Shown piece after piece: positions 1 through 15,534 of a stretch of 64,000 bases of DNA. A program made the translations under genes and the position numbers. Each line of letters begins with the position of its first letter. The first letter of the stretch is position 1. The DNA is from an uncultured Prochlorococcus sp. (GTDB lineage: Bacteria > Cyanobacteriota > Cyanobacteriia > PCC-6307 > Cyanobiaceae). The notes under the pieces are model-generated. The model was not told the DNA's origin and made no database searches. It saw only the letters and a list, made by a program, of their open reading frames with translations. The stretch spans positions 5,238 to 69,237 of the forward strand of contig CACGHD010000003.1 of the NCBI GenBank assembly GCA_902572825.1. The letters run 5' to 3'.

Positions 1-80
1 CCTTAATTGTGTAAATATCAAAAATTATATTTTACATAATAATTTAAGTGTATAATTTCAGTTAATTAAACTTTAAAAGA

Positions 81-1409
81 TTGATTTCTGATTACGAAAA
101 CATATGTGTAATTGATTCTTTTAAAAACAATGTAAGAACAAAGAAAATTCAAATTTGTTCAAAGTATTTGACTAAAAAAAATATATTTTCTGAAGAAAAT
201 ACAAAGAAATTATTTTCAAATATTTTTCTTGAAGCAAAAAATACTGATTCTCTTGAAGCTCTCCTCTGCCTTAGATGCAGGGTAAGTTATCCAATTAAAA
301 ATGCTATTGGAACACTTTATAAAAAAAATAGGTCAATTTATGAAATTGATTATTTAGATATGATGACCTATGTTTTAGATGATTATGGTGAAAATTTTCT
401 AAAGGTTTCGAATGATTCAAATAAAAATATAAAAATAATCGAAAAAGCATTTAAATGGAGCAACGTTATTAAGGTAGAGAAAAATAAATTACGTCCTTTT
501 GGGGCAAGAGTACTTTTAGATTTTAATTCTGAGCTATCAAATATAGATACCTGGACCTTTCACAAAGTTAGATCAAATTCTGAGCTTAAATCTTATTTAA
601 AAAGCTTTGGCTTAAATCTTAAAGGAACATGGTCCTTAATTTCTGAGCAAAGCCCATCAAGAGTAAGAGAGGCATGGAGACTTTATGGAGAATTACCAAT
701 TAATACGAGAGAAATAGAAAGTCTCCATAAGTCATATGTACAAAACTATAAAAAAGCTAAAACAGAATATAGAAAATATAAAAATACTATGATGGGTTGG
801 GAACCTGATCTAGAATTCCTCCAATCACTTAAACCTAAACAAAAAGATACTGTAATTCTTGAAAAGATAGGAAAAGCAATTAGAAGACTTATATCTGTCA
901 ATCAAGGTTCATCACAGAACTCAATTCAATTTGAAAATATGAGCAGAGAAGAGGTCATTAAAAATGAACTCTATACTTCTGATTTAATTTTTGATTCTGA
1001 TTCAATTGATAATGAGAAAGACATATTACAAAAAACTATAAAAGAAGCTACTTTTTCAGTAGTTAAAAATATTGTTGATAATCAATATTTGGAATTAGAG
1101 GAAAATGACACTAGAAGATTAGCCTGGGAATTATATGCAGAAGGATTTAGTCAAAGGGATATAGCAACAAGGTGTGATCATAAGCAAGCTTGGGTTAGTA
1201 AACTAATAAAAGAAAAAATCATTCTTGAGAGAATTTCCTTACTAGCGGTAACTAAATTAAAGGACTATCCTGAATTTAAAATTCTGAAAAGAGAACCTGA
1301 GAAAATTGATAATTTAATTATGCAATTGCAAATATATTTAATTTCTAAACAACCTGATTATCATAATTCAATTTTAAAAGAGGTCCTTAAGGAGGTAATA
1401 AATAAATGA
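81..1409 (+). CDS. Sigma-70-like protein of the cyanobacterial family found upstream of DUF1822 genes
   Basis: LCLRCRVS...VLDDYG...LDFNSELSNIDTWT (region-2-like) and C-terminal sigma4-type HTH LYAEGFSQRDIATRCDHKQAWVSKLI; stop overlaps next start. Confidence 0.65.
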   Translation: MISDYENICVIDSFKNNVRTKKIQICSKYLTKKNIFSEENTKKLFSNIFLEAKNTDSLEALLCLRCRVSYPIKNAIGTLYKKNRSIYEIDYLDMMTYVLDDYGENFLKVSNDSNKNIKIIEKAFKWSNVIKVEKNKLRPFGARVLLDFNSELSNIDTWTFHKVRSNSELKSYLKSFGLNLKGTWSLISEQSPSRVREAWRLYGELPINTREIESLHKSYVQNYKKAKTEYRKYKNTMMGWEPDLEFLQSLKPKQKDTVILEKIGKAIRRLISVNQGSSQNSIQFENMSREEVIKNELYTSDLIFDSDSIDNEKDILQKTIKEATFSVVKNIVDNQYLELEENDTRRLAWELYAEGFSQRDIATRCDHKQAWVSKLIKEKIILERISLLAVTKLKDYPEFKILKREPEKIDNLIMQLQIYLISKQPDYHNSILKEVLKEVINK

Positions 1410-2620
1410 TAGAAGAAAACAAAAATATAAATGAGGATAGAATAGATGCATACCCTATTCCACAAGAAGCTGTAATTTTAGATGATAAAAAGGTATTAGA
1501 TTTAAGCCAAGTAGTAATGTTGGCTATTAAGCAAATTATAAAAGACAGAGGTATAAGTTTAAAAATTAAAAAGAAGGGAAAAAATACTGCTGAAGATTGT
1601 GTTTTTGAAATAAATAATTTTTCTATTCAGGTTGTTTATACAGGAATTACTTCAGACCATATAATTGTTCCTTTGAAGAGATGGTACAAATTAAATGATT
1701 CTCCTCAAATAATACTGGCAGCAAGTATTGATGAAGAAAATAATATTATTTTCTTCAATGGAATAATTACAGCTAAAGAATTTATCAATATATTTTTAGA
1801 AAGGAATGCAAAAAATCAAACCTTTGAAATATCATTAAATCAATTTAAAGGAGGTATAAATAGACTATTAAGTTTCGTTGAAATACTTGATTCTAAAGCT
1901 TTATCAAAATCAGGATTAACTAGTAAATTAAATTCCCATGATTCTTTATTAAAAAAAATAGGTTTTTCGAGAAGAAATATATCTATTGGTGCGCTTGTTC
2001 TTGGTTCAATAATCTTTGGGCCTGCAATTCTTAAACCCAGAATTTCTTATAATTTGGCTTCAATTAAATTAAGTGAAGTTGAAATACTCTCAAATACAAG
2101 GGGTAATGATGTAGATAATATCTATCCAAAGTTATGTATATTAAGTCCTTATCTCTCTCCTTCAAAAAGTAATAAAATTCAAGTCTCTAATATATTTTTC
2201 GATAAACCTATTATTTATACACCTGATCCACTTAATGAAATTATTATTTCTAAAAATGGCAAAGTGATATGGAGTAAAAAAGGATTATCTATTAATGAAA
2301 GAATTTTAGGACCTATAAATTGGCCTATTGATCCATTAAAGCCAAATGAAGAATATATGTTAAGTCTTAGGCCAAAAGGGATACCTTCAGGGGAGTTTGG
2401 TAATATTTTGATCTCTGCGAGTCCTGAATTAATTAGATTAGATGATCTTGTTGATTCACTTGGTGAAAATAAAAATAAATGGATCAAAACAATAAATAAA
2501 ATGTTCAAAGAAGATAAAAATCTTGCTTTCGCATTACTTTTATCTAATAAATTGCCTGAATCAAATATTTTGAATGAGTATAAAAATAAATTTATTTCTA
2601 TAGAGGGTTGCGTAAAATAA
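1406..2620 (+). CDS. Putative membrane-anchored anti-sigma factor: DUF1822-like N-domain, one TM helix, DUF928-like C-domain
   Basis: IILAASIDEENNIIFFNGII..FEISLNQF resembles DUF1822; TM ISIGALVLGSIIFGPAIL; NTRG..LCILSP..P after the TM resembles DUF928; coupled to the sigma-like gene. Confidence 0.55.
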   Translation: MIEENKNINEDRIDAYPIPQEAVILDDKKVLDLSQVVMLAIKQIIKDRGISLKIKKKGKNTAEDCVFEINNFSIQVVYTGITSDHIIVPLKRWYKLNDSPQIILAASIDEENNIIFFNGIITAKEFINIFLERNAKNQTFEISLNQFKGGINRLLSFVEILDSKALSKSGLTSKLNSHDSLLKKIGFSRRNISIGALVLGSIIFGPAILKPRISYNLASIKLSEVEILSNTRGNDVDNIYPKLCILSPYLSPSKSNKIQVSNIFFDKPIIYTPDPLNEIIISKNGKVIWSKKGLSINERILGPINWPIDPLKPNEEYMLSLRPKGIPSGEFGNILISASPELIRLDDLVDSLGENKNKWIKTINKMFKEDKNLAFALLLSNKLPESNILNEYKNKFISIEGCVK

Positions 2621-2625
2621 ACTAT

Positions 2626-5355
2626 TTAAAATTTTATGGGATTCCAATCTCCGCTTAGTTGAAAAGCTGCCCAGATATAAGGCGATCTAAGTTTTTTGTT
2701 TGGATGTTTTCTAAAAAATTCTTTTGTTTCTACTAAAGCTTCTGATTTCCCTTTACCTTCTTTAATTTTTTTATAAAAATATTCCATAAATTTTGCCGTG
2801 CCATCATCACTTACCTTCCATAAGGAGAGTAAACTAGACTTTGCTCCAGCTACTGAAATTGCTCTTTTAAGTCCATATATACTATCTCCAGTACTCGGCA
2901 TTATGGCTCCTCTGCCAGAATCACATCCAGAAATAACAACTAGTTCAGTGCCCTCTAATTCCAATCTTGAAAATTCTAAAGCTGTTAAATATCCATCATT
3001 ATTTGGATTGTTTGTTTTATTATTTACACCAGATAAAACAATTCCACTCCTCATCATGGGATGAGCATTCATTTCTTTAATATTAAAAAAATAAGAATGG
3101 CTAGCTATGTGTAATATTTTAGGATTTTGATTTTTAAAAATAAATTCTTCGGTAGCATTTTTACCCATAACGAGTTCTGCTTCAATTATTTTAGAAATCG
3201 CCAATCCTTCTTTTTTAGTCCCCTTTAATGTTGGCCATTCAACTAAAGGAAATTTATTTTTTTGCCTTTTAATATCACCAAAAAGTGATTTATTATTTTT
3301 TTTACCAAACTCCGGAGCAGCAATTATGATACTTTGGTTGCTATTAGAATTTGAATTAATTTTAACTAATTCTCTGCCAGTAGTTAAAAGTCTTACATTA
3401 AAAATTTGATTCAGATATCTATTACTTTTTGGCGCCTTTAGTGCTGAAAAAGGGACTAAATTTATATCACTATCTGGAGAAATATATAGGTTTTTAAAAT
3501 TTTTGAAATCTTCGTATAGAGGATCTAAAATTGCATCTGAAATCAAATCCCATAGTTCATTTGATTTCTCTGGGAATTCTTTTACATTCAAAATAGCTTC
3601 ATTTATATATTCATTTATTTTCTTTGACTTTCCTAAATCAATAACTTTACTCTCTCCATTTGGTTTGAGAAGTATTGCTAAATATCCCTTTTCTGGGAAA
3701 GGTATATCAGTTAAATTTCTGTTTTCTGAATATAAGTATTTACCAAATTTATAATATGACTGAAATTCAATTAAAATTGAATCATTAGAAAGAACTTCTG
3801 TAATTTGATTTTTATCAATAATTCTTGGTTTATATTCAGGTATTCTCTGATATAGTTTCTTTTCTATATTTGATTTTATTATTACCTTCTTTGACCATTC
3901 TTCTGAACCTCTTTCAAATTTTGTAAGTTCTTGGTTTACTTTTTTTAATTGGCTATATAATTCATTATTTTTAGTTAAGCCTTTGATTATTTTATATTGC
4001 TTCCTTTCGATTTCCTCTAATAAACCTTGCTTATTTAATCTGCCAAATAATGCAATATCTGGATTGACTTTTCCTAAAGCTGCATGACTATAAAGAATAA
4101 GAAAATCGTCTTCATAACCTAATAGGAAATATGGCCTATCATCTAAAGGTAAAAATGGAGCTTCTCTTTGAATAACATATAAATTATTTTCTAATGCTTC
4201 TTTTAATAGATTTGAGCCATTTTGGTTGCGATTCTGTTCAAAGTATATTCCACTTAGATTAATAAGGATTTGATTTGTCAAAGGATGATATTTGCCAAGC
4301 TTTTTTTCTGATATTTCTTGAGCATCTTTATAATTTTCTTCAGCCTTTCCAAGCATTCCTAGTCCTTCATAATTTGAAGCTAAATTATTCAATGTATTAG
4401 CAACGTCAGGATGCTCACTACCTAATATTTCCTTTCTAGCTATTAGTATTTCTTCAAGAATTATTATTGCCTTCTGAAATTTATTATTTTCCTGATACAA
4501 ACCTGCAAGATGCTCTTTAGTATTAATCGTTTTAATGTGATTAGTACCTAAAATCTCTTCATCAATTTCGAGTGCTCGCTTTATAAAAGATTCTGCTTCA
4601 TATAGATAGTAATCATATTTACCTGGAGTAAATCTTTTTTGAAGATAAAGGCTTCCTAAATTAAGGAGTATCATTGAAACTTTTTCACTTTTAAATATCT
4701 TATTTTTTATAAGTATGTCTAATGCTCTTTGAAAATTAAATTCCGAAACATTCAGAAGATTTTGATTTTTATATAGTAGTCCTAAATTATTTAAGGTTGA
4801 TACCAATAAAATGTCGTTCTGACCATATATTTTTTCTTTAAGCTTCAATGCACCTTCTAACTCCAACTCTGCTTTACCTAATAAACCTTTTTCAGAATAA
4901 AGGAGACCTAAACTATTCCTTGCATCAGCCAAAGCTTTAAAATCAGGTTTTTCTTTATTTGAAAATATATCTATACTTTTCTGATAATGTATTTCTGAAT
5001 TTTTAAATTCACCTAAATTTCTATATGTTGAACCTAAATGTAAATTTGCAAAACCAGTAAGTTCATGATCTTCTCCAAAGTATATTTTAACTTTTTCAAG
5101 TATTTCTCTCCTTATTTGTAGAAGATCCTCAAATCTCTGTTCTTCTTCTGCTTTATCAGCTTCAATAAAAAGAATTTCAAATTCTTTAACTTTTGTTTTT
5201 GCATTTTCAATATTTTTTTCATACATTATTTTTTCATGCCATTTTACCTGAGCTTTTAAAGGTAAAATATCTCCACTTGAAATTAGTGAGAGCAAACAAA
5301 AAATTGATAATAAAGCTTTTGGATTATAGATTTTCAAAAGTAATTTGTTAATCAC
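2626..5355 (-). CDS. Exported TPR-CHAT (caspase-like) protease
   Basis: N-terminal signal-like segment; kinesin-light-chain-type TPRs (LGSEHPDVANTLNNLA); CHAT His (ILHIASHS) and Cys (VISGCDSG); SLWKVSD; PYIWAAFQLSG. Confidence 0.9.
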   Translation of the reverse strand: MINKLLLKIYNPKALLSIFCLLSLISSGDILPLKAQVKWHEKIMYEKNIENAKTKVKEFEILFIEADKAEEEQRFEDLLQIRREILEKVKIYFGEDHELTGFANLHLGSTYRNLGEFKNSEIHYQKSIDIFSNKEKPDFKALADARNSLGLLYSEKGLLGKAELELEGALKLKEKIYGQNDILLVSTLNNLGLLYKNQNLLNVSEFNFQRALDILIKNKIFKSEKVSMILLNLGSLYLQKRFTPGKYDYYLYEAESFIKRALEIDEEILGTNHIKTINTKEHLAGLYQENNKFQKAIIILEEILIARKEILGSEHPDVANTLNNLASNYEGLGMLGKAEENYKDAQEISEKKLGKYHPLTNQILINLSGIYFEQNRNQNGSNLLKEALENNLYVIQREAPFLPLDDRPYFLLGYEDDFLILYSHAALGKVNPDIALFGRLNKQGLLEEIERKQYKIIKGLTKNNELYSQLKKVNQELTKFERGSEEWSKKVIIKSNIEKKLYQRIPEYKPRIIDKNQITEVLSNDSILIEFQSYYKFGKYLYSENRNLTDIPFPEKGYLAILLKPNGESKVIDLGKSKKINEYINEAILNVKEFPEKSNELWDLISDAILDPLYEDFKNFKNLYISPDSDINLVPFSALKAPKSNRYLNQIFNVRLLTTGRELVKINSNSNSNQSIIIAAPEFGKKNNKSLFGDIKRQKNKFPLVEWPTLKGTKKEGLAISKIIEAELVMGKNATEEFIFKNQNPKILHIASHSYFFNIKEMNAHPMMRSGIVLSGVNNKTNNPNNDGYLTALEFSRLELEGTELVVISGCDSGRGAIMPSTGDSIYGLKRAISVAGAKSSLLSLWKVSDDGTAKFMEYFYKKIKEGKGKSEALVETKEFFRKHPNKKLRSPYIWAAFQLSGDWNPIKF

Positions 5356-5374
5356 ATTATTTTTAATTTATTTT

Positions 5375-5734
5375 TTAAAAGTAACCGAATTTAGATAATC
5401 CTTTTTTAAATTCATATTTTAAATATGTTCCACAAGTTTTTGTTGCTTCAGAAATTGTATCACCAGAATAAATTGAGGTACCTAAGCAATCGCAATAAGC
5501 TTTATATGCTGGTTTCAATATTTGATTTTTTACCTTACTATTTCCAATCTCGTTTCTTAATTTAATAAATTGTGGAGAAGAAAATCGAGGATCATTTGTA
5601 GATTTTCTAATCATATTATTGGGACATTCTCTCTTTGAATATTCCAAAAATTCTTTTTTTTCACTATTACTTAATTGAGCATCTGCTCTGATATTAAAAA
5701 AAAACAGAAAGAATAAAAATATAAAATACTTCAT
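5375..5734 (-). CDS. Small exported Cys-containing protein upstream of the CHAT gene
   Basis: Signal peptide MKYFIFLFFLFFFNIRADA; four Cys including YCDC; 19 bp before the CHAT ORF. Confidence 0.6.
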   Translation of the reverse strand: MKYFIFLFFLFFFNIRADAQLSNSEKKEFLEYSKRECPNNMIRKSTNDPRFSSPQFIKLRNEIGNSKVKNQILKPAYKAYCDCLGTSIYSGDTISEATKTCGTYLKYEFKKGLSKFGYF

Positions 5735-5768
5735 CAGAAATTTTTTTTATGATAACACGACTTTTTTT

Positions 5769-5797
5769 GGAATCAGTACTGAGAACCTACAACTATA
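5769..5797 (+). promoter_or_regulatory. Bipartite motif copy 1, GGAATCA-N15-AACTATA
   Basis: 28 nt upstream of ATG 5826. Confidence 0.75.
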
Positions 5798-5825
5798 TAT
5801 TCATAAATAAAAATAGTTACTTATC

Positions 5826-6848
5826 ATGAATCCTGTTGAGCTGATTGATTTTCTTGAAAAACTTATCTCTAAAAATTTAAATATAAGTACTATGATCTGG
5901 GGTCCTCCAGGCATTGGTAAATCAAGTATTGTTGCAGCTGCTGCAGAGAAGGCAGGTATTGATTTCATTGATCTTCGTTTAAGTCAATTAGCTCCAACTG
6001 ATTTAAGAGGTTTACCCGTCCCAGTTCATCCTAATAAGGGTGAAGAATATGGCATATCAAAATGGTATCCTCCAGAATTCTTGCCTAGAGAAGGGAAAGG
6101 AATTCTGTTTCTTGATGAATTGAATATGGCTCCACCTGTAATGCAAGGAGTCGCTCAACAATTAATACTAGATAGAAAAATTGGAAGTTATAAAGTACCT
6201 GAGGGATGGATAATCCTTTCTGCAGGAAATCGAAAGGAAGATCGTGCTTCTGTCTTTGAAATGCCATCACCTCTTGCAAACAGATTTATTCATTTAGAAG
6301 TAGAAGCTAATTATGAAAGTTTTAAAAAATATGCTGTAAATAAAAATATTTCAGAGGAAGTTACTTCATTTTTGGCATTTAGACCAAAATTACTTCATTC
6401 AATGAAGGCAGATCAAAAAGCATGGCCCTCTCCTAGGTCATGGGAAATGGCAAGTAAATTATTTAATTCGGGAATCCCAATAGATATTGCTGTTGGAGAA
6501 GGAGCGGCTTCAGAATTTAATTCATTTTTAAATGTTTATAAGAGGATTCCTAATCTTGAAATCATATTGAAAGGTAAGGGTAAAAAAATTAAATTTCCGA
6601 AACAGATTTCAGGTCAATGGGCTACAACTACAGGTCTAATATATCGATCAAAGAATGCTCATCAAGTAAAGAATGTTTTTACTTGGTTAATAGAAAACTC
6701 AACTCCAGAATGGGTTCAACTTTATGCTTCGGATATCGTAAATACCTTTAAAAATAATGGAAAATTATCTGAACTTGCAATGTGCGTTATGAATGATCCA
6801 ATAATAATTAAGTATTTTAAAGGCTTTGAAGAGATTTTAAATAAATAA
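5826..6848 (+). CDS. MoxR/AAA_5-type AAA+ ATPase
   Basis: Walker A GPPGIGKS, Walker B LFLDELN, SAGNR, PLANRF, PSPRSW. Confidence 0.9.
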   Translation: MNPVELIDFLEKLISKNLNISTMIWGPPGIGKSSIVAAAAEKAGIDFIDLRLSQLAPTDLRGLPVPVHPNKGEEYGISKWYPPEFLPREGKGILFLDELNMAPPVMQGVAQQLILDRKIGSYKVPEGWIILSAGNRKEDRASVFEMPSPLANRFIHLEVEANYESFKKYAVNKNISEEVTSFLAFRPKLLHSMKADQKAWPSPRSWEMASKLFNSGIPIDIAVGEGAASEFNSFLNVYKRIPNLEIILKGKGKKIKFPKQISGQWATTTGLIYRSKNAHQVKNVFTWLIENSTPEWVQLYASDIVNTFKNNGKLSELAMCVMNDPIIIKYFKGFEEILNK

Positions 6849-6850
6849 TT

Positions 6851-8011
6851 ATGGAAAAAACTAATGAAGAAAATCTAGCTCAATATATTAGTGCTACAAG
6901 AATTAGGTTGAGAAAGACATCGCCATTCTTTGCTGCATTATCACTTTATGCAGAAATAGATTTTAATCAACATGTTCCATTAGCACGTACTAATGGAAAA
7001 AAAATAATCTTCAATCCTAATACTTATTTTAAATTGCCACCTAAAGAAAGAGATGGAGTTTATTTACATGAACTTCTACATATGGCACTTTTACATACTT
7101 TTAGAAGAGGGATAAGAGATCCTAAAATATTTAATATAGCTGCAGATATAGTTGTAAATGGAATGATAGAAAACGAAGGTAAAGTAAAAATACCTTCATT
7201 TGGAATAAGAGATAAAAAATTAGAGCATTTAAGTGTTGAAGAGGTTTATGAAATTCTTTTAAAAAATAAAAATAACTATAAGGAAGAGTTTGACGACTTA
7301 ATTTATGAGGATAAAGATAAAGATGAATTTGAAGGAAATCCTAATAAACCTAATGGTTTGGATATAAATTCTGAGAAAGAAATAAGAAATTTCTGGAAGC
7401 AAGCAATTAACGATTCAAGATTAATAGCTAAATCAGCTGGACAAAATAAATTTCCAGATTCCTTTGAGCGAAATTTTGCAGAGATTACAGAGCCTGAAAT
7501 AGATTGGAAAATTAAGCTTTGGAATTATTTAGTAAAAACACCAAGTGATTTTGGAGATTTTGATAGAAGATTTATATATTCAGGACTTTATTTAGAAAAT
7601 CTTGAGGGAGAGAGTGTAGATGTATTTTGTTGTATAGATACAAGTGGATCAATATTAGATAGCGAAATAAATAAGTTCATGGGAGAGGTTAAAGGTATCC
7701 TAAATTCTTATCCAAATATAAACTTTAAATTATGGTATGCAGATCATAATTGTTATGGCCCTTATAAGATCGAATCATTTAATAATATTCCTCGTCCACA
7801 AGGAGGAGGAGGTACTGATTTTGAGCCATTCTTTGACATATTAAAAAATAATGAGAAAAAATATAGGCAAGGAGTTTCTATTTATCTTACTGATGGCTAT
7901 GGTTATTTCCCAGAGAAAGAACCAGAAATACCAATTTTGTGGGTAATAGTTCCAGGCGGTGCAGAAAATAGTTATTTCCCTTACGGAGAGATCATAAGAC
8001 TAACAAGTTAG
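6851..8011 (+). CDS. DUF2201-like metallopeptidase-vWA protein
   Basis: HELLH zincin motif, NIAADIVVN, MIDAS IDTSGS, GGGGTDF, LTDG. Confidence 0.85.
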   Translation: MEKTNEENLAQYISATRIRLRKTSPFFAALSLYAEIDFNQHVPLARTNGKKIIFNPNTYFKLPPKERDGVYLHELLHMALLHTFRRGIRDPKIFNIAADIVVNGMIENEGKVKIPSFGIRDKKLEHLSVEEVYEILLKNKNNYKEEFDDLIYEDKDKDEFEGNPNKPNGLDINSEKEIRNFWKQAINDSRLIAKSAGQNKFPDSFERNFAEITEPEIDWKIKLWNYLVKTPSDFGDFDRRFIYSGLYLENLEGESVDVFCCIDTSGSILDSEINKFMGEVKGILNSYPNINFKLWYADHNCYGPYKIESFNNIPRPQGGGGTDFEPFFDILKNNEKKYRQGVSIYLTDGYGYFPEKEPEIPILWVIVPGGAENSYFPYGEIIRLTS

Positions 8012-8019
8012 GCAGCTAA

Positions 8020-8047
8020 GGAATCAATTTTAATTCTTAGAACTATA
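8020..8047 (+). promoter_or_regulatory. Bipartite motif copy 2, GGAATCA-N14-AACTATA
   Basis: 28 nt upstream of ATG 8076. Confidence 0.75.
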
Positions 8048-8075
8048 TAAAAGTAATTAAATAATTATCTTTATT

Positions 8076-8576
8076 ATGAGAATTCCAAAAGAAAATCTTA
8101 CACATGAATTTGTCGCCGAGATTTTAGATTTGTTTCAGGTAAACGCAAAAACTTCTGTCAGTAATTTTGTTTTGATAAAGGATAATTATCAGTCCACAAT
8201 TCATATAAATAAAGATGAGGATTTTATAGAGTTTATTTCTACTTTAGAAGTAAGAGATTTTGGAAAAATATATTTATCTTTTCTTGAATTTATAATGAAA
8301 AGCCATAATAGAAATTTCAATGTTGATCTTGATGATTGTATTAATAAAAATGGTTCTAACGATATAACATTTTTATTTAAATATGATTTGAGAAATAAAA
8401 GTCATATTGAAGATATTGAAATCCTTAATCTACATAATTTATTTGAAAGTCTTTTATATAAAGCTAACCATATTTGTAGGGAAATATTTCTTATAAAAAG
8501 AGTAAATGAACTTAATGCTAAAGAAAAAGAATTAATAAAGGATATAAATAAACTAGAAAGAATATATAGAAAATAA
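8076..8576 (+). CDS. Hypothetical protein (possibly YbjN/chaperone-like fold plus C-terminal coiled coil)
   Basis: 166-aa ORF after motif copy 2; fold guess is weak. Confidence 0.5.
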   Translation: MRIPKENLTHEFVAEILDLFQVNAKTSVSNFVLIKDNYQSTIHINKDEDFIEFISTLEVRDFGKIYLSFLEFIMKSHNRNFNVDLDDCINKNGSNDITFLFKYDLRNKSHIEDIEILNLHNLFESLLYKANHICREIFLIKRVNELNAKEKELIKDINKLERIYRK

Positions 8577-8579
8577 AAA

Positions 8580-9101
8580 ATGGAAAAAAATAATTCAAAT
8601 ATTGATTTTTCTGAAAAAGATGAATCACCATATCTTAAATATCTTAAAGAAGGTACTAAGAAATTTTATGAAAATGATTTCTCTGGTTCTTTGAAATTGT
8701 TAAATATGGCAATAAGACTAGGCTGTAATGATAGGTATGTATTTTGGAGAAGAGGTTGCGCAAAAAGTAGGTTAGGTGATCACAAAGGAGCAAATTCTGA
8801 TTTCCGCCAATTCGGTACTCATCTAGAGACTGAATATATGCATAAATTATTAAAAGACAAAGTTTCGGAAAAGTCTAATTTCACAGATGAATGCGTTGAT
8901 TTGATTGTATGCTCATTAAACTCTCAAGAGCTAAAAGTAATAACTAATCGATTCGGTCTTGTAGATGGAATATTTAGGACTCAAAGAGAAGTGGGAACTT
9001 TTCTGGGCATAACAAGGCAAAGAGTTTCACAAATTGAATCTAAGGCAATAAAGAAGATAATGATAGCGAAGTCTTTAGAAAATTTATTTGAGAAAAAATA
9101 A
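8580..9101 (+). CDS. TPR plus sigma-70 region 4 fusion protein
   Basis: TPR (YVFWRRGCAKSRLGDHKGANSDF) and RpoD-like region 4 (LNSQELKVITNRFGL..TQREVGTFLGITRQRVSQIESKAIKKI). Confidence 0.85.
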   Translation: MEKNNSNIDFSEKDESPYLKYLKEGTKKFYENDFSGSLKLLNMAIRLGCNDRYVFWRRGCAKSRLGDHKGANSDFRQFGTHLETEYMHKLLKDKVSEKSNFTDECVDLIVCSLNSQELKVITNRFGLVDGIFRTQREVGTFLGITRQRVSQIESKAIKKIMIAKSLENLFEKK

Positions 9102-9103
9102 AT

Positions 9104-9514
9104 TCAAATATCAAAAAAACTTCTAATCAGACTAATAATCTCCAACGGTATTATATTCAACTCTAATTTATTCTCTTGAATAACTTCAGAGTCTAAATCT
9201 AAAGCCTTTTTAAAATCATCAATTCCCTTATCTAAATTGTTGATCTTAATATATGCAATTCCTCTAAGAAAGAATTCTTTTGCTCTTATGTAATTAAAGT
9301 CTCGGGGTGATATTGAACGTCTTATATATCTATAACAACCATTAGTATTTGATATATCAATGGCATAGGTAAAATCTTCTGTTGACTTTTCATAGTATTT
9401 ATTCTTAAAATATAAAATACCCCTATTATGGTAAGCAGCAAATACTTCGTAAATATTGTTGTTATTTCGTATCTGTTTTGTGTAGAAGTTAATATTTAGA
9501 TTTGGTTTTTTCAT
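9104..9514 (-). CDS. TPR protein (paralogue array)
   Basis: AYHNRG..YEKSTEDFTYAI; FFLRGIAYIKINNLDKGIDDF; shared C-terminal motif. Confidence 0.8.
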   Translation of the reverse strand: MKKPNLNINFYTKQIRNNNNIYEVFAAYHNRGILYFKNKYYEKSTEDFTYAIDISNTNGCYRYIRRSISPRDFNYIRAKEFFLRGIAYIKINNLDKGIDDFKKALDLDSEVIQENKLELNIIPLEIISLIRSFFDI

Positions 9515-9554
9515 TAATTTATTAATAGAGTTTAAATCGAGTTTTTAAATACTT

Positions 9555-9971
9555 TTAGTTCAAAGCAGCTAGATATTTAAATGTCGATTTAATATGATCT
9601 GGTAATTTTTCTATTAGATAAGTTTTTTCCTTAATTATTTTTGGATATATTTCGATTGATTTTATAAAATCATTTGTTCCTTCTTTTTTATTGCCTTTTC
9701 TAAAATGAGCGATGCCTCTTATTAAAAAAATTCTTGAAATCCAATTATTATTGTAAATTTTCTTGATTTCATAAGGTATATTTTTTTCTTTATTTAAAAT
9801 CTCTAGATAATCAAGGCATTTATTAGAGTCAGATATTACGGAATTAAATTTCTCAATTTCCAGATTTAAAAAAGCTCTCATTCTATATAAATCTAATTTT
9901 CTTTGGATAGAAATGTTTTTGTTTTTTATCTCTTTATTAATTGAATTTATTATTAGGATTCTATGCTCCAT
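9555..9971 (-). CDS. TPR protein (paralogue array)
   Basis: IFLIRGIAHFRKGNKKEGTNDFIKSIEIYP; shared C-terminal motif. Confidence 0.8.
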   Translation of the reverse strand: MEHRILIINSINKEIKNKNISIQRKLDLYRMRAFLNLEIEKFNSVISDSNKCLDYLEILNKEKNIPYEIKKIYNNNWISRIFLIRGIAHFRKGNKKEGTNDFIKSIEIYPKIIKEKTYLIEKLPDHIKSTFKYLAALN

Positions 9972-9993
9972 GTTGTCTGAATTTATTAGAAAA

Positions 9994-10509
9994 TTATTTA
10001 AGAATATTATTTTTGATTATCCCTTTAAACAATCCAGGTAAATCCTCTAAGATATTTTTATTATTTTTTAAAATATCTGGTTCTAGTTCAATACTTTTAC
10101 CAATATCTATAAGAGCCAGATCAAATCTATTTTGTTTTGCATATGAATAACCTCTCATCAAATATAGAATTGGCTTTCTTTCCATATTCAAAGCCTTAGT
10201 TAAATCCTCAATTGCTTCTCTATATTTTTCTATAATTAAGAAACATATGCCTCTTTTCTGAAGTATAAATGTCTCGCACACAAATAAATTATTTTTTCTT
10301 AAAGCCTCGGAATAGTCTTTAATAGCATAATAATAATTTTTTAGAAAAAAATTAATATTTGCCCTGTAGAAATATGCATTACATAAATTTGGACAAATAT
10401 TTATCGCTTTTCCATATTCATCTATAGCCCCTTTGAAATCTTGATATACTTTCTTAGCTCTGCCATTTCTTATATATATCCAATAATCATTGGAAGCTCT
10501 TAATTCCAT
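9994..10509 (-). CDS. TPR protein (paralogue array)
   Basis: About four TPR units, e.g. DFKGAIDEYGKAINICPN; shared C-terminal motif. Confidence 0.85.
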   Translation of the reverse strand: MELRASNDYWIYIRNGRAKKVYQDFKGAIDEYGKAINICPNLCNAYFYRANINFFLKNYYYAIKDYSEALRKNNLFVCETFILQKRGICFLIIEKYREAIEDLTKALNMERKPILYLMRGYSYAKQNRFDLALIDIGKSIELEPDILKNNKNILEDLPGLFKGIIKNNILK

Positions 10510-10532
10510 GAAACCTATTTAACTAATAAGTA

Positions 10533-10560
10533 AATAGTTTTGTATTTTTAAATTGATTCC
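10533..10560 (-). promoter_or_regulatory. Bipartite motif copy 3, GGAATCA-N14-AACTATT
   Basis: 23 nt upstream of ATG 10509, heading three tandem TPR genes. Confidence 0.75.
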
Positions 10561-10570
10561 TAGTTCTTAA

Positions 10571-11659
10571 TTAATTGCTTTTTAAAGATATATTTAAGGA
10601 TATTCTTATAAGATTTTTCATATATTCGGGTACCTCATCAAATATTGATTCTTCGTCTTTATCTAAAATTTTAGAATCTTTTAAAAACATTTCTTCAAAG
10701 TTTTTTAAAGCTTCATTATAGTTTCCTCCTAAAGTGTTAGATAAACCTTTAAGCATTAACAAAAAAGCTAATTGTTGATTTTCAAGTTTTAATTTCAATG
10801 CTTGATTCAAGGCATTCTGTGCATCAATAAATTTGCTTAATTTAATGTATGCATAAGCTTTATTTATTAAATGCATTAATTTATAAACTCCCGAATTGAT
10901 CATTATTATTTTTCCCTTATCAGATGATGTTAATCCTTTTTTGTATTCTCCAATTCTCATATATGCCCATGCTTGTTCTAAATGAGCAATCGCCATATCT
11001 TCATTTTCAAGATCTTTAGAATTTAATGCTTTTATAAAATCTCTGATTGCATTTCTATAATCCTTTGTTCTACTTTTAACAACTCCTCTTCTCACAAATA
11101 TATCTCCTTTTTTATATCCAAGATTAATGGCTAAATTAAAATCTGATATGGCACTCATGTAATTTCTTATTTTAAAAAAACACAATCCTCTATTATAAAA
11201 AGTATCGTAGTCAATTTTTATTTTATTAGCTCTATTAAAATCAAGAATAGCTTTCTTATATCCACCATATTCGTAATGACATACTCCTCTATTGAATAAA
11301 GAATTAAAATCTTTAGGTTCAATTGAAAGTGCTCTTGAGAAATATGGCACTGCTAATTTATATTCTTTTAAACTTAAATAGGCTTCAGCTAATTCATAAA
11401 ATGAAGAAAATCCTGGCTTGGGATTAAATGATAATGCTAATTTTAAGTCCGAAACTGCCTCTTTATAAAGTCCACATCTGTTACTAATTAATCCTCTTAA
11501 AAAATGGGCCTCATGATTACTTTTATCATAATAAGCTCCATAAAGATGTATTGATTTTGATAATTCATCATAAGCATTTATTAATCTATTTTTCTTTATA
11601 TATTCTTTGCCTCTAATAAGATGTGATTTCCAAATGTATATTCTAGGATTTCGTGTCAT
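10571..11659 (-). CDS. Multi-TPR protein; start revised from 11734 to ATG 11659 (MTRNPRIY)
   Basis: Many TPR units; motif copy 4 lies inside the longer call and 23 nt before ATG 11659. Confidence 0.85.
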   Translation of the reverse strand: MTRNPRIYIWKSHLIRGKEYIKKNRLINAYDELSKSIHLYGAYYDKSNHEAHFLRGLISNRCGLYKEAVSDLKLALSFNPKPGFSSFYELAEAYLSLKEYKLAVPYFSRALSIEPKDFNSLFNRGVCHYEYGGYKKAILDFNRANKIKIDYDTFYNRGLCFFKIRNYMSAISDFNLAINLGYKKGDIFVRRGVVKSRTKDYRNAIRDFIKALNSKDLENEDMAIAHLEQAWAYMRIGEYKKGLTSSDKGKIIMINSGVYKLMHLINKAYAYIKLSKFIDAQNALNQALKLKLENQQLAFLLMLKGLSNTLGGNYNEALKNFEEMFLKDSKILDKDEESIFDEVPEYMKNLIRISLNISLKSN

Positions 11660-11682
11660 TATTTTTAATTTCTTAAAATTTA

Positions 11683-11710
11683 AATAGTCCTGAAAAAATA
11701 AAATGATTCC
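11683..11710 (-). promoter_or_regulatory. Bipartite motif copy 4, GGAATCA-N14-GACTATT
   Basis: Back-to-back with copy 5. Confidence 0.7.
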
Positions 11711-11714
11711 AATT

Positions 11715-11743
11715 GGAATCATCTGTAGAGACAAAAAACTATA
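11715..11743 (+). promoter_or_regulatory. Bipartite motif copy 5, GGAATCA-N15-AACTATA
   Basis: 27 nt upstream of ATG 11771. Confidence 0.75.
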
Positions 11744-11770
11744 AGTATTTGAAATTAATAAAAATTAAAA

Positions 11771-11980
11771 ATGGCTAATTGGCATAAGGGCAGCATTAGT
11801 TCTAAAAAAATTGATGTTAAATTAAGGCTTCGTCAAATGTGTGAAGATATAGATGAAATGATCGAATATATTAATGAAGAAGAAGAAAATATTGAAAATA
11901 TTGATTCTTCAGAGATAAAAATTTTAGTGGAGGGAGCAAGAGCAGTTTTAGATTTAATAATTGCTATTAAAAATAAATAA
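11771..11980 (+). CDS. Small acidic helical hypothetical protein
   Basis: 69-aa ORF with its own motif copy. Confidence 0.6.
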   Translation: MANWHKGSISSKKIDVKLRLRQMCEDIDEMIEYINEEEENIENIDSSEIKILVEGARAVLDLIIAIKNK

Positions 11981-12054
11981 ATTTTTTAAAATGATTTAAA
12001 TTTTTATTTGCGAATTTATCTGAATAATAGTTTTTATCATTTAAAAATTAATCT

Positions 12055-12987
12055 TTACTTAAATGATATTTGAAATTTTATACGTATTATATTTTTCAAA
12101 CTTTCTGGGATTAGTTTAATAATATCCTGATTTCTGTTTATAAATTTTTTATCCTTTGAAAAACCTATGTAAAAATCGTTGATAGCATTTTCTATATTCC
12201 CAATTTTAAATTCTGCAAAACATTTATTAATATATAGCCTAGATATATCTGTGATATAGGGTTCATAAATTTCTGAACTTTCATCAATTGCCTTTTCAAA
12301 CATACTTATTGCCATATTGAAATTGCAATATTCTTGATATATTAAACCAGCATGAATATATGCTCTGTAGCAAAAAGAATTGTTTTCTATAGATTTATTT
12401 ATATCAGAAAATGCTTCTTTGATATTCCCACCTAAGTAATATGCTATTGATCTATCAGCGTATAAAAAACCAAGGTAATCTTCTTGAAGCTGATGGTATG
12501 AGCGCGGATGCTGTTTAAGAAGAAATAAAGACCAGCTGAAATTAATAATAGATTCTTCATAATTTTCTAGCTTTCTGTTAAGAAATCCCATTAGCCAAAA
12601 CAATTCAATTAAAAAATCTACTTTTTCTTTCTTTAGAAGATTTTTATCCTCTTTTATATGTTTTGTAAAAATAATAAGAGATTCATTTAAATAATAAATA
12701 TTTCCAAAATCTATTTTGTATGATAAATGATTTGCTAATTCCCATATACCTCTACTATAAGTAAAAAGTTCTTTTAGGATTTTTACAGCATTTTTTTGAC
12801 AAGACATTAAATAATATGTTCTAGCTAAAAATACTTGAATAAAATATTTTTCAATTACATTACTTGGAGGGTTATTTAATGCCGATTTGAAGCTTTTACA
12901 AGCTAATAAATATTTAGATAATTTTAATTCTTGAATACCAATATCCCTATATGTTTTCCAGTTTGGTTTATTTGTCTTCCCCATCAA
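12055..12987 (-). CDS. Multi-TPR protein (paralogue array)
   Basis: LYADRSIAYYLGGNIKEAFSDINKSIE; shared C-terminal motif; ATG at 12984. Confidence 0.85.
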   Translation of the reverse strand: MMGKTNKPNWKTYRDIGIQELKLSKYLLACKSFKSALNNPPSNVIEKYFIQVFLARTYYLMSCQKNAVKILKELFTYSRGIWELANHLSYKIDFGNIYYLNESLIIFTKHIKEDKNLLKKEKVDFLIELFWLMGFLNRKLENYEESIINFSWSLFLLKQHPRSYHQLQEDYLGFLYADRSIAYYLGGNIKEAFSDINKSIENNSFCYRAYIHAGLIYQEYCNFNMAISMFEKAIDESSEIYEPYITDISRLYINKCFAEFKIGNIENAINDFYIGFSKDKKFINRNQDIIKLIPESLKNIIRIKFQISFK

Positions 12988-13020
12988 AAAATTATATTAG
13001 TAAATATTTCTATTGGTTTT

Positions 13021-13048
13021 TATAGTTTTAAGTCTTATTAGTGATTCC
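13021..13048 (-). promoter_or_regulatory. Bipartite motif copy 6, GGAATCA-N14-AACTATA
   Basis: 36 nt upstream of ATG 12984. Confidence 0.75.
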
Positions 13049-13051
13049 TTT

Positions 13052-13621
13052 TTAATTAAAACTAAAATCGAAAGATAAATATATTAGATATTTAAGAGTT
13101 GATGAAAGTTCTTTATCCAGATTTATTTCTAAATTTTGACCTTTCCCTAATTCCATAGTTATTATTTTAAAGTTTTGTCCTCTTAGCTCATCCACTTCTA
13201 CAAAATGTCCAAAATAGTAAATACTTTTTTCAAATTTATCTAATTGATCCATTAATAAAGTTAATCCAATATATTTTGCACAAAATTCAGGATGTCCTTC
13301 AATAGCTATTTTATTTAACCAATATTCAGCTTTTTTAAATTTCTTTATTTTTATATAAGAAAAGCCTAAGAAAATAAAATCATGATCAGAGTTTTTTCTT
13401 AATTGCATCAAATCTTTGGTAAAAAATATTACCTCATGAAATTTTTCAAGATAAAAATTTATACCAATAATTTTTTTTATAACTTCAATTTTAATATTAT
13501 TTGTTGGTTTTAATAAAAGTATTTTTTTGTAAAAATATATAGCTGAATAGTATTCTTTACTAAAGCATTTTGAAACTGCTGTTTCTCTATAAGATGCAAT
13601 TAGAAGAGAATTTTCTGCCAA
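13052..13621 (-). CDS. Degenerate TPR protein
   Basis: EYYSAIYFYKKILLLKP; FIFLGFSYIKIKKFKKAEYWL. Confidence 0.7.
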   Translation of the reverse strand: MAENSLLIASYRETAVSKCFSKEYYSAIYFYKKILLLKPTNNIKIEVIKKIIGINFYLEKFHEVIFFTKDLMQLRKNSDHDFIFLGFSYIKIKKFKKAEYWLNKIAIEGHPEFCAKYIGLTLLMDQLDKFEKSIYYFGHFVEVDELRGQNFKIITMELGKGQNLEINLDKELSSTLKYLIYLSFDFSFN

Positions 13622-13651
13622 CTCAAAATACTTTTTAAAATACGGTATTTT

Positions 13652-13680
13652 TATAGTTCTAAATCTAAATTTATGATTCT
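13652..13680 (-). promoter_or_regulatory. Bipartite motif copy 7, AGAATCA-N15-AACTATA
   Basis: 30 nt upstream of start 13621. Confidence 0.7.
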
Positions 13681-13696
13681 AGATTCGCGCCATTTC

Positions 13697-14779
13697 TTAT
13701 GTAGGAAAAGTATTCTTGAAGTAAAGATAATAAGGGCGCCCTCCTTTAGAACTTCTTTTTTTCCTGCCTAATTTGTTTTTGCAAAATAATTCAGTACAAA
13801 TTCTTCTTGTGTGTTCTGGGTTGGATTTTAATTTTTGAGAAATTTCATTAATACTTAATTCTTTTTTAAATTCGGAAAAATGTGTAATTATCCTATGGCT
13901 TAGATCCTTTTTTGATGATGGAGATAATTTATATTTACCGGCATTTTTGAAAGTGAACGATAAATCCTCTTTATTTCCTTGTATATTCCATTCGTCATCT
14001 TTTTCGCAATTTCTCTTTCCTAAGCATCTAAGAACATAGTGATCTTCAAATTCTTGCTTCTTGGATTTATAAATACTCCAAATATCACTTACAGCACTTG
14101 AAATCTGTCCAGAACCTAAAATGTCATTGATGCTTACACCTTCTCTTTCCGCTTTAGTTAAGTGACTATTTATAACTATTAATATTTTTAGTTCGCTTGC
14201 AAGTTTATTTAGTTCATATAAAGCCCCTGCGAATTCAGGATCCTTAAAGCTATATTTTTCATTGGTTAATAGAGTACTGATGCTATCTAGGAGCACAACC
14301 TCATAACCATTTAGTTTTACATAGTTTCTTAATTTAGGGATATCAAGCTTAACCCAACCATCTTCAGCAAATATATAGTCCACCCCTTCTTCAATTCCCA
14401 TTAAATGGCATTTATTTAAGCAATTTTCCTCTGATTCATCTGCTTGCCACATCAATACCTTACTTTTAATAGTTTCTATCTCATTTAGGAAGTCCTCACC
14501 TCTTGATACTGCATAACCAAGTTGATAAAGAAATGAAGTTTTACCTTCGCCTTTATCCCCTGCAAGTAATACACAAGCACCTCTAGCACCAAATGAACTT
14601 ACAATCCACTCGGTAGGCTGCCTACTTTTCATGTAATGACTTATATCTTTGGGACCTTTTTCTACTTTTTCTATGGCGTTAAAGTCCTTTTTCCTTCTTA
14701 TCCCTGACTGAATTTCATAATTTAAATTATCTCTTGCCTGGGCAGAATTAAGATCAAAACCATATTCATCATTGATCAT
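13697..14779 (-). CDS. AAA_25/RepA-like (SF4) helicase with C-terminal winged HTH
   Basis: Walker A GDKGEGKT, Walker B VLLDS, SHLTK, LGSGQIS; C-terminal HTH. Confidence 0.8.
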   Translation of the reverse strand: MINDEYGFDLNSAQARDNLNYEIQSGIRRKKDFNAIEKVEKGPKDISHYMKSRQPTEWIVSSFGARGACVLLAGDKGEGKTSFLYQLGYAVSRGEDFLNEIETIKSKVLMWQADESEENCLNKCHLMGIEEGVDYIFAEDGWVKLDIPKLRNYVKLNGYEVVLLDSISTLLTNEKYSFKDPEFAGALYELNKLASELKILIVINSHLTKAEREGVSINDILGSGQISSAVSDIWSIYKSKKQEFEDHYVLRCLGKRNCEKDDEWNIQGNKEDLSFTFKNAGKYKLSPSSKKDLSHRIITHFSEFKKELSINEISQKLKSNPEHTRRICTELFCKNKLGRKKRSSKGGRPYYLYFKNTFPT

Positions 14780-15059
14780 TATGATCTCCTATGTTTTGGA
14801 CTTGTCTTAATGCTTTATCCGCGTGATACTCATATCTATTTCCTCTCTTTCTAAAAGCGCCTGCTTGGATTTTTCCAATCATTCTGTATCTACCAACTGT
14901 CTTTGGAGAACATCCAAGCAAAGAAGCTAATTCATGAGGCTTCAACCAAGTCTTATTCCTCTGAGGTGTAGTTTTGATTAATTCTTTAACAGCAATAGTA
15001 AGGTCCTCTACTTCAGCTATTAATCTGCCAATTCTTAATTGATCATTATTTAGAGTCAT
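14769..15059 (-). CDS. Excisionase-like (MerR-type HTH) protein; likely start ATG 15059
   Basis: WLKPHELASLLGCSPKTVGRYRMIGKI..RYEYH; overlaps helicase start. Confidence 0.75.
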   Translation of the reverse strand: MTLNNDQLRIGRLIAEVEDLTIAVKELIKTTPQRNKTWLKPHELASLLGCSPKTVGRYRMIGKIQAGAFRKRGNRYEYHADKALRQVQNIGDHNDQ

Positions 15060-15065
15060 TGAATC

Positions 15066-15313
15066 GATACCCAACTTGTTTGTGTTAGGTATCGGCTCCT
15101 GTCAAATGACTTTACGGAGCCTTTGCTTTACGATACGTTGCCCAACCTTTAGCTTTAGGCATGCTGTAGAGTCTCACTCTCTACTTCACTACGTCAAGTG
15201 ATCCAACTCAGGCTCTTAACCTGGCTGTTTGTAGTCGAATTCCTGGTTTTTCATACAGGTGTAGCTACATAACTAGCTCCAAAGCAAATTGTCTAGTTGT
15301 GCTTGCTGACAGG
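15066..15313 (-). ncRNA. Putative structured RNA/leader of about nine consecutive hairpins
   Basis: GC-richer than flanks; stems AAGCA/TGCTT, AGCTA/TAGCT, CCTG/CAGG, CAGG/CCTG, CACT/AGTG, GTAGAG/CTCTAC, TGCCTAA/TTGGGCA, GGCTCC/GGAGCC, GATACCTAAC/GTTGGGTATC. Confidence 0.55.
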
Positions 15314-15490: not shown

Positions 15491-15534
15491 CTACTTTTCA
15501 AGACTAGAGCCTTAAACCACTCGACTACCCCTCC
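15491..15534 (-). repeat. 5'-half tRNA-Ser(TGA) remnant (att scar)
   Basis: Minus strand GGAGGGGTAGTCGAGTGGTTTAAGGCTCTAGTCTTGAAAAGTAG: acceptor 5' strand, D arm and anticodon arm, no 3' half; TATAAT upstream. Confidence 0.85.

Follow-up and report, generated by a model that had tools for sequence, protein, structure and literature searches.

In the type III-E craspase (Csx29/Csx30/CASP-sigma), a TPR-CHAT protease is said to free a sigma factor. In Myxococcus xanthus, the TPR-CHAT anti-sigma DdvA and DdvS, its sigma factor of the extracytoplasmic function (ECF) type, govern a defence island, according to the passages of PMC11506125 on this pair, and in Anabaena PatU3, a candidate anti-sigma, is cut by HetF, a CHAT protease (PMC9457339, PMC13342950). 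Neighbourhoods of EACC2-caspases with an ECF sigma gene and a DUF1822 gene were described computationally by Kaur, Iyer, Burroughs and Aravind in 2021 (PMC8195603); the passages concerned state no promoter, regulon or anti-sigma role. For 14 Prochlorococcus species, the relevant part of a cyanobacterial sigma survey gives only the primary-type (A.1) family (PMC11119718); the passages of PMC2758279 concerned say nothing about absent sigma groups. Here we analyse a locus of this kind in a 64,000-nucleotide (nt) stretch of an uncultured Prochlorococcus genome (the window: contig C3, positions 5238-69237, of G000, a genome of 1.33 Mb that is 79% complete). The locus comprises a predicted sigma gene (open reading frame ORF81), a predicted anti-sigma gene (ORF1406), a TPR-CHAT protease gene and a two-box motif that precedes neighbouring cargo genes.

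We propose, with a probability of roughly 0.57, that ORF81 is held at the membrane by ORF1406, is freed by the likely exported TPR-CHAT protein and drives a private motif. The N-terminal domain (N-domain) of ORF1406 is predicted by modelling to cover both the sigma2- and the sigma4-like parts of ORF81, thereby holding it at the membrane. The TPRs of this protease would sense a cue outside the cell, and its CHAT domain would cut ORF1406 after Arg232, outside the membrane; a site-2 (RseP-type) protease would then cut the remaining membrane helix and release ORF81. The freed protein would start transcription at the two-box motif, some 50-65 nt before the cargo genes. The output would be a set of genes for responding to threats, inducible and exchangeable (for TPR proteins, small exported proteins, an M48 peptidase and an ATPase/vWA-peptidase pair), joined in some genomes by a retron or a ShosTA-like pair.

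Unlike the craspase, the locus has no Cas genes among the genes scanned here and its protease is likely exported; a guide RNA cannot be the trigger. With DdvA/DdvS it has in common a single-pass anti-sigma, a periplasmic TPR-CHAT, an ECF sigma factor, private promoters and a second cut by RseP, which we presume here, as far as the passages of PMC11506125 on that system go. In contrast, DdvA carries the TPR-CHAT part within the anti-sigma itself, whereas here the protease is a separate gene; the sigma-binding domain of DdvA is a small zinc bundle, whereas here it comprises about 150 amino acids (aa) with a nuclease-like alpha/beta fold and no CHCC in the alignment; and ORF81 is twice as long as DdvS, with cargo that is not CRISPR or CBASS. 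With HetF/PatU3/sigma-HetZ, as covered by the parts of PMC13342950 concerned, the locus shares a cyanobacterial long ECF-type sigma factor with insertions, a co-transcribed inhibitor and a spacer of 16-17 bp. It differs in that there is no detectable homology to the HetZ system, whose boxes are TCCGGA and TGnA (PMC13342950), in that HetF has a membrane helix between its CHAT domain and its periplasmic TPRs, and in that HetF/PatU3/HetZ are developmental and not mobile (PMC9457339). Sequence homology of the ORF81 module to HetZ/PatU was considered and rejected: there is no NF037963 match in G000, and hhalign probabilities are at most 3.6% (HetZ) and 0.2% (PatU) on shallow HetZ/PatU alignments. 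The fold matches of ORF81 included no HetZ structure, and the two may still be alike in fold.

The EACC2-caspase neighbourhoods, as presented in the relevant passages of PMC8195603, resemble the locus in combining a sigma gene, a DUF1822-type gene and a caspase-fold protease, and Cyanobium-type relatives of our module share their caspase-CHASE2 membrane protein. In the Prochlorococcus form this protein is absent (0 of 17 loci of low guanine-plus-cytosine content, GC), and 16 of these 17 loci carry a membrane-spanning fusion in its place. The sequence-only reading had left novelty of a CHAT-gated sigma module to a search. The neighbourhood (PMC8195603) and the logic (PMC11506125, PMC9457339) are already known from the parts of these papers concerned, and what appears undescribed is the Prochlorococcus form: no description of this three-gene form, its promoter or its regulon was found in the literature outside the supplements of PMC8195603 and PMC13342950, which may list the proteins.

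An AlphaFold model of ORF81, built from 71 relatives (predicted local distance difference test, pLDDT, 81.6; predicted template modelling score, pTM, 0.54), has a sigma2-like region at about residues 37-179 and a sigma4-like helix-turn-helix at about 335-385. When the model was compared with 48,161 chains, the top seven matches were all sigma factors (Z 6.3-7.6, each score middling). The sigma2 alignments have a root-mean-square deviation (rmsd) of about 3 over 91-96 residues, for example 8vjl_B (Z 7.6, rmsd 3.2, 96 aligned) and 5h6x_B (Z 6.6, rmsd 3.0, 94 aligned). With a deeper ORF81 profile, 12 of 22 full-length DUF1822 loci of other cyanobacteria gave a match in the gene immediately preceding DUF1822 (E 6e-21 to 2e-5); in all five such upstream relatives tested, Pfam Sigma70_r4 is over its cut-off, and the protein-language look-alikes of ORF81 are unnamed or sigma70-labelled cyanobacterial clusters. 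The family counts 610 representatives at E 0.001 among 1.84 billion, and its profile finds a match in 27 of the 285 genomes examined in the genus; in 20 of these the match is full-length, with E below 1e-100. On these matches, ORF81 is most likely a sigma factor, and a sigma factor with a regulon marked by the motif is very probable. A longer sigma-like paralogue (545-569 aa) with its own ORF1406-like partner is present at L150:8670-11416, L151:7996-10808 and L152:8499-11269; it has no motif copy beside it, and a pentapeptide-repeat gene and a trypsin-TPR gene lie nearby. The three genomes that have only this distant paralogue show no motif site near it.

The motif consists of TTGGAATCA followed by AGAACTA(T/A)A, with a spacer of 16 (39 sites) or 17 (73 sites). 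Searching with GGAATC, 16-17 free bases and ACTAT(A/T), we found 6 strict copies in window positions 1-13700, where 0.013 are expected, and 7 loose ones against 0.11 expected (300 third-order Markov shuffles); the seven copies upstream of cargo genes that had been read from the letters are thus real. Genome-wide there are 10 strict matches in 1.33 Mb, 9 of which lie within 18 kb (C3:456-18285). Three further copies to the left of the window (C3:456+, 2383+ and 5239-) precede an M48 peptidase gene, a gene for a 469-aa TPR protein and, together with a weaker fourth copy, a 146-aa gene, which makes the unit larger than positions 81-13680. In G000 every copy but C3:456 is followed, at 51-64 nt, by a start codon on the same strand.

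With the 10 G000 sites as training set, a weight matrix retrieved 112 sites in 25 genome units; these were selected for carrying the ORF81 gene or the motif, several are close kin, and 11 of the 112 sites come from G000 itself. At 80 of the 112 sites the first ATG of an open reading frame lies 45-79 nt downstream on the same strand, a figure that falls to 7 for the opposite strand and to 2.8 for random places (at most 8 in 300); a lone GGAATC gives 13 of 236. Both boxes are kept before all eight other copies of the ATPase gene that were compared (66-86% protein identity, some in the same or kin genomes), with a differing spacer. The exact pattern GGAATCA-N15/16-ACTATA is found in 35 of 285 genomes, and twice or more in 10, of which 9 carry the ORF81 gene (Fisher p 1.5e-9, which is overstated, since kin genomes are not independent); the co-occurrence that the sequence-only reading set as a check is therefore seen, with one exception, G228. 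A reversed control pattern gave 4 matches in all 285 genomes, and where gene and motif share a contig, the sites fall within about 18 kb of the ORF81 gene. Single exact matches in genomes without ORF81, mostly two near-identical strings repeated, were set aside as shared chance matches. A scan for the sigma70 consensus returned 85 sites against 92.7 expected and is uninformative. Four metatranscriptome runs contained 5-10% of the words; their contigs, short, scattered and of low depth, have no power on starts or strand and speak neither for nor against expression. We read the two-box motif as a putative promoter with -35/-10 geometry that ORF81 would recognise. The TPR and sigma4 protein encoded at 8580 was also considered as its reader and rejected, as its relatives occur in only a few motif-bearing loci. 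In several relatives the sigma gene itself contains a motif copy, 76 nt ahead of the gene of ORF1406 type; this arrangement would act as negative feedback and resembles the HetZ-driven patU promoter (PMC13342950, in the passages on it); G000 has no such copy.

The frames of ORF81 and ORF1406 overlap by 4 nt, and ORF1406 has a single hydrophobic stretch (residues 191-209), the like of which is seen in 20 of 23 Prochlorococcus-type rows. The coupling of a sigma-like gene to a single-pass partner thus stands, but the DUF1822 label given to that partner earlier does not receive a Pfam match (PF08852). hhalign probabilities against DUF1822 are weak (0.7% for the ORF1406 N-domain and 26% for Cyanobium-type relatives), with the core strands in register, and an Atlas lead with a score of 0.89 is a cluster with 11% DUF1822. 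We draw the DUF1822 link from gene order, an N-domain gene of the ORF1406 type lying directly behind a long sigma-like gene in 33 of 34 loci. Similarly, the outer domain has no Pfam match to DUF928 (PF06051) and an hhalign probability of at most 0.5%.

In the predicted complex of ORF81 with residues 1-188 of ORF1406, the score was 0.79 in three runs, against 0.00 for the best of three controls. Of 157 solved complexes 116 attain the mark used for this score, as do 2 of 215 mismatched pairs; for the alignments used here these counts are only approximate. Contacts agree between runs in at least 82%, the pLDDT of the partner is at least 75, and the interface on ORF81 comprises residues 75-83, 157-194 and 373-413, i.e., both ends. 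The model supports binding of the N-domain to ORF81, short of showing it, and agrees with the pairing suggested earlier; ORF1406 is probably an anti-sigma. In its own model the N-domain adopts a PD-(D/E)XK nuclease-like fold, a label taken from the matched structures (best Z 8.1, rmsd 4.4, 128 aligned); the middle, which holds the hydrophobic stretch, is unmodelled, and an Ig/FnIII-like domain follows. The likeness of the modelled N-domain (window 1406-1960) to restriction endonucleases suggests a nuclease origin for DUF1822-type anti-sigmas.

Comparison of loci points to how this protein may have arisen. Of 17 low-GC Prochlorococcus loci, 16 encode N-domain and outer domain as one fused protein, the remaining locus being cut by a contig end. 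In 12 of 17 high-GC loci the outer domain has a gene of its own, whose product starts like a signal peptide, and in 16 of these 17 a CHAT-CHASE2 gene follows. This counterpart of the EACC2-caspase protein, whose C-terminus varies, was found neither in the window nor in the 17 low-GC loci. In Cyanobium-type CHAT-CHASE2 proteins, His and Cys are kept in 9 of 9. In the alignment, the membrane helix of ORF1406 falls at the signal peptide of the Cyanobium-type exported gene. ORF1406 thus appears to be a Prochlorococcus fusion of a sigma-binding domain, a membrane helix and an exported domain that replaces the Cyanobium-type CHAT-CHASE2 relay. The simplest account of this pattern is deletion of the CHAT-CHASE2 gene: a four-gene operon (sigma, DUF1822-type, CHAT-CHASE2, exported protein) would have given the Prochlorococcus form, the signal peptide becoming a membrane anchor and the two-protease relay being shortened to one. 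Such an origin by deletion is most likely, its direction being read from the comparison and not from a tree.

The TPR-CHAT gene is convergent to the ORF81-ORF1406 pair, and its product retains the CHAT domain, His753 and Cys811, as had been noted from the letters; the signal peptide assigned to it is our reading of its one hydrophobic stretch, at residue 15. A TPR-CHAT gene is present in 27 of 34 loci, including all 17 low-GC ones; the relatives have His and usually Cys motifs, and N-termini that we judged by eye to be hydrophobic. Arg232 of ORF1406 lies 23 residues outside the membrane helix. Among the 46 aligned sequences in which this arginine is invariant, Cys244 is also invariant and Cys402 nearly so. 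Arg232 forms an R-G/S word before a cysteine, and the Cyanobium-type exported gene has a like word, as have 14 of 25 DUF928 proteins. The CHAT domain of HetF cuts PatU3 after Arg117, according to the passage on this cleavage (PMC9457339), and Arg232 is a candidate cut site here. An M50 site-2 protease (E 5e-56) is encoded in the genome. No motif copy is found in G000 at the CHAT gene, at the 119-aa gene next to it or at the ORF81-ORF1406 pair. A role of the CHAT protein as the gate is moderately favoured; that it cleaves ORF1406, and on what trigger, is what we infer from these features.

Several results weigh against the proposal. ORF81 has no Pfam or NCBIfam sigma match. Its structure scores are middling (best Z 7.6); Foldseek places sigma factors in its top four rows only at E 0.4-0.6 and returns nothing at E 0.001 or better for the models of ORF81 and ORF1406. 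G228, 82% complete, has three motif copies on two short contigs and no ORF81 match, and among the 20 genomes whose ORF81 relative is full-length, 11 contain one exact copy at most, with looser ones where checked. Above a GC of 0.45 the pattern is present in 8 of 37 loci, the others possibly using another consensus; one of these high-GC loci, in a Cyanobium record, has three sites 52-72 nt before starts. Prochlorococcus-type CHATs have Ser or Ala, not Gly, after the catalytic His, which makes their activity uncertain. As to function, the 15 window proteins scanned against PADLOC match no defence family except via the shared sigma4 domain, and recognised defence operons stand behind the motif in 5 of 25 genome units, four of them being one near-identical retron lineage. 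For DdvA, the trigger is given as unknown and phage Mx4 caused no cleavage, in the passages of PMC11506125 on this point.

What the switch is for depends largely on the cargo of relatives. In G261, G279, G228 and G361 (the last copy cut by a contig end), a motif site lies 287-288 nt before a HEAT-ARM/SWIM/reverse transcriptase (RT) operon that PADLOC, a collection of tested and candidate systems alike, assigns to retron type XIII (RT E 6e-144, SWIM E 6e-150). The gap between motif and operon folds as a retron-like RNA (z -9.9; 7 of 85 pairs changed on both sides, all from one sequence), and the outermost paired arm of this RNA starts 8 nt past the second box of the motif, matching the expected transcript start. 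This RNA, a long hairpin with paired ends, is at L145:7619-7856 (G261), L141:3712-3949, L149:3331-3567 and L251:11433-11670. In G181 a ShosT/ShosA (DprA-like) pair stands behind the motif (E 3e-17 and 1.5e-68; L133:11106-13146). We took 76 representative motif-led proteins from 85 clusters of all units, leaving out core genes and some doubtful short reading frames; the clear defence matches among them are the retron XIII set and the ShosT/ShosA pair, with an HNH nuclease and an AAA protein by domain only. Pfam further recognises many TPRs, a DUF4116 repeat protein, M48 peptidases, a DNA ligase and a DnaB-like helicase. The genes for DnaB-like helicase and ATP-dependent DNA ligase behind the motif are at L240:6712-7605, L141:11343-12215 and L145:5298-6167.

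On these annotations, a defence role of the regulon is plausible, from two systems in 5 of 25 units; for an anti-phage or anti-predator purpose the odds are about even. Alternatively, the switch may serve envelope or protein stress, or an interaction at the cell surface, with the retron and the ShosTA-like genes as local recruits to the promoter. Such a role would suit the motif-led genes, most of which encode peptidases, TPR proteins, small proteins for export, a DNA ligase and a DnaB-like helicase, and it would suit window cargo that has no defence match. However, two unrelated defence-type systems and an HNH nuclease gene stand behind the motif, the ATPase/vWA pair matches phage families strongly, and the closest working analogue controls a defence island, as the passages on it state (PMC11506125). 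We regard the stress or surface role as a serious possibility, somewhat short of even odds.

It may also be that sigma factor, anti-sigma and motif act as proposed, and that the TPR-CHAT protein is not the gate but an output or a partner that does not cut, ORF1406 being released by ligand binding or by a periplasmic protease of the host. In relatives the motif does head gene runs that contain TPR-CHAT (L026, site 1289; L240, sites 6659 and 8868), several loci have two or three CHAT genes of varied length, and the cleavage itself is presumed. Yet TPR-CHAT is present in all 17 low-GC loci while the other cargo varies, His and Cys are kept, the CHAT gene of G000 is motif-free, as expected of a standing sensor, and the invariant outer arginine would need another explanation. 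A CHAT protein outside the gate is therefore unlikely in our judgement, though it deserves attention.

Considerably less probable is that ORF81 is a two-domain DNA-binding activator or repressor that sits on both boxes while a host sigma factor transcribes. Its lack of a sigma family match, a PDB sequence search with its profile that gave only MarR/helix-turn-helix matches (best E 0.02), and a second box that resembles an AT-rich -10 element would fit such a regulator; the sigma2-like fold in its N-terminal half, the spacer of 16-17 nt with a fixed distance to starts, and look-alikes in cyanobacterial sigma70-family clusters argue for a sigma factor instead. A reading of the motif as a site for recombination (of cassettes), or as an AT-rich repeat that arose by chance, can practically be dismissed: it precedes exchangeable genes in a mobile region, but the shuffle and strand controls, the free spacer, the divergent back-to-back copies at 11710/11715 and its position just before the start of the retron RNA all contradict this.

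Table 1. Features of the module, its cargo and its right border (window positions)
Position	Strand	Feature	Support or remark
81..1409	+	ORF81, predicted long ECF-like sigma factor, 442 aa	AlphaFold model, structure matches, profile matches
1406..2620	+	ORF1406, predicted single-pass anti-sigma, 404 aa: cytoplasmic N-domain, membrane helix, exported Ig/FnIII-like and helical domain	
1976..2032	+	Predicted membrane-helix codons (residues 191-209), basic residues before	Hydropathy 1.93
2099..2101	+	Arg232 codon, candidate cut site outside membrane	Invariant in 46/46 aligned sequences
2626..5355	-	TPR-CHAT caspase-like protease, 909 aa, likely exported	PF12770 E 4e-60, TPRs; His753/Cys811
5375..5734	-	119-aa protein, hydrophobic N-terminus; directly upstream of and co-oriented with CHAT gene	No motif; no Pfam family
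5769..5797	+	Motif copy, 57 nt before ATPase start	
5826..6848	+	AAA+ ATPase (MoxR-like, label by reading), 340 aa	Pfam AAA/AAA_5; phrog_1297 E 5e-83
6851..8011	+	DUF2201_N putative metallopeptidase and vWA-like protein, 386 aa	Pfam E 3e-27, 5e-17; phrog_1314 E 4e-73
8020..8047	+	Motif copy, 56 nt before 166-aa gene	
8076..8576	+	166-aa protein, family not recognised	
8580..9101	+	173-aa protein: TPR-like N-terminal part, C-terminal sigma70 region 4	Pfam Sigma70_r4 E 4e-10
9104..10509	-	Three small TPR genes (171, 138, 136 aa), one run	
10533..10560	-	Motif copy, 51 nt before 171-aa TPR gene	
10571..11659	-	TPR protein, 362 aa from motif-fitting ATG	Longest frame starts 11734
11683..11710	-	Motif copy, back to back with 11715 copy	
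11715..11743	+	Motif copy, 56 nt before 69-aa gene	
11771..11980	+	69-aa acidic protein	No family; relatives behind motif in other genomes
12055..12987	-	TPR protein, about 310 aa	
13021..13048	-	Motif copy	
13052..13621	-	TPR-like protein, 189 aa	Weak TPR matches
13652..13680	-	Motif copy, AGAATC variant, 59 nt before 189-aa gene	
13697..14779	-	AAA_25 helicase/primase-like gene (mobile-element replication module)	Pfam E 4e-15; phrog_239 E 1e-7
14769..15074	-	Excisionase-like helix-turn-helix gene	HTH_17 E 6e-5; phrog_7735 E 3e-4
15495..15535	-	tRNA-Ser(TGA) 5' 41-nt fragment, attachment-site-like; right border of unit	97.6% identity to intact tRNA-Ser(TGA), contig C7

The features of the unit are collected in Table 1. 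The ATPase and DUF2201/vWA genes (5826-8011) are the ones with strong matches to phage families, phrog_1297 and phrog_1314. The motif-led 173-aa protein (8580-9101) has a sigma4 domain of the group 1/2 type, its architecture of TPR and region 4 recurs in a relative, and it could dampen or redirect host transcription.

The first 14 kb of the window are low in GC (0.24-0.33). Contig C3 extends 5.2 kb to the left of the window, and the left border of the unit lies past the contig end. The module had been placed inside a tRNA-integrated element; the tRNA-Ser(TGA) fragment and the excisionase-like and helicase-like genes agree with this, while no integrase was found between these genes and the fragment or elsewhere on this contig, and ARAGORN detects no tRNA within the window. 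On contig C7 an integrase-like gene (phrog_1, E 5e-5) adjoins the intact tRNA-Ser(TGA) near the contig end; a join of C7 to C3 is conjectural. Related modules in other genomes lie near tRNA-Thr, -Pro or -Ser genes or fragments, and this range of neighbours shows movement between islands, though it is not proof of an intact active element here. A further tRNA-Ser(TGA) fragment is at 19465-19504. Repeats around the border fragment (15527-15573/18840-18886 and 15470-15536/19439-19505) bracket a block of 3.3-4 kb that consists of three enzyme-like genes (15878-18812); they are probably traces of further integrations. Two small proteins of 115-122 aa (L001:3896-4243 and L254:3570-3938, on contigs C3 and C7) are related at 29% identity and belong to no family except phrog_34910; theirs may be a mobile-element hallmark gene. 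As to other carriers, tblastn gave 0 matches in 50,697 phage records and one distant match in viral contigs; nine plasmid matches, all weak, are in filamentous cyanobacteria. With the Tycheposons, as far as the main text of their preprint goes (bioRxiv 10.1101/2020.12.28.424599), the island shares excisionase-like and helicase-like genes, a partial tRNA, a tRNA-linked location and cargo of about 19 kb or more. Unlike them, it has no integrase that we found at its right end, and its left border is beyond the contig. The words ‘sigma’ and ‘TPR’ are absent from that main text.

About one in ten genomes of the genus (27/285) thus matches a divergent family of sigma factors that escapes standard profiles. 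With a promoter consensus, a predicted binding domain and a named cut site, a sigma/DUF1822/caspase module so far only catalogued becomes directly testable in a minimal form of three genes, and it is connected with the control of retron and toxin-antitoxin expression; a sigma/promoter pair that is orthogonal and gated by a protease is also a potential tool for engineering cyanobacteria. More tentatively, at less than even odds, the module may be a mobile outside-in immune switch, in which an exported caspase-like sensor cuts the fused anti-sigma at Arg232 and frees a type of sigma factor unreported for Prochlorococcus. If so, any gene that gains the 29-nt promoter, be it a retron, a toxin-antitoxin pair, a nuclease or a TPR array, would join the response, DUF1822-type proteins would act as anti-sigmas with a nuclease fold and DUF928-type proteins as exported substrates of a protease, in a relay widespread among cyanobacteria, and costly defences would be plug-in parts that stay silent until attack in the ocean's most abundant phototroph.

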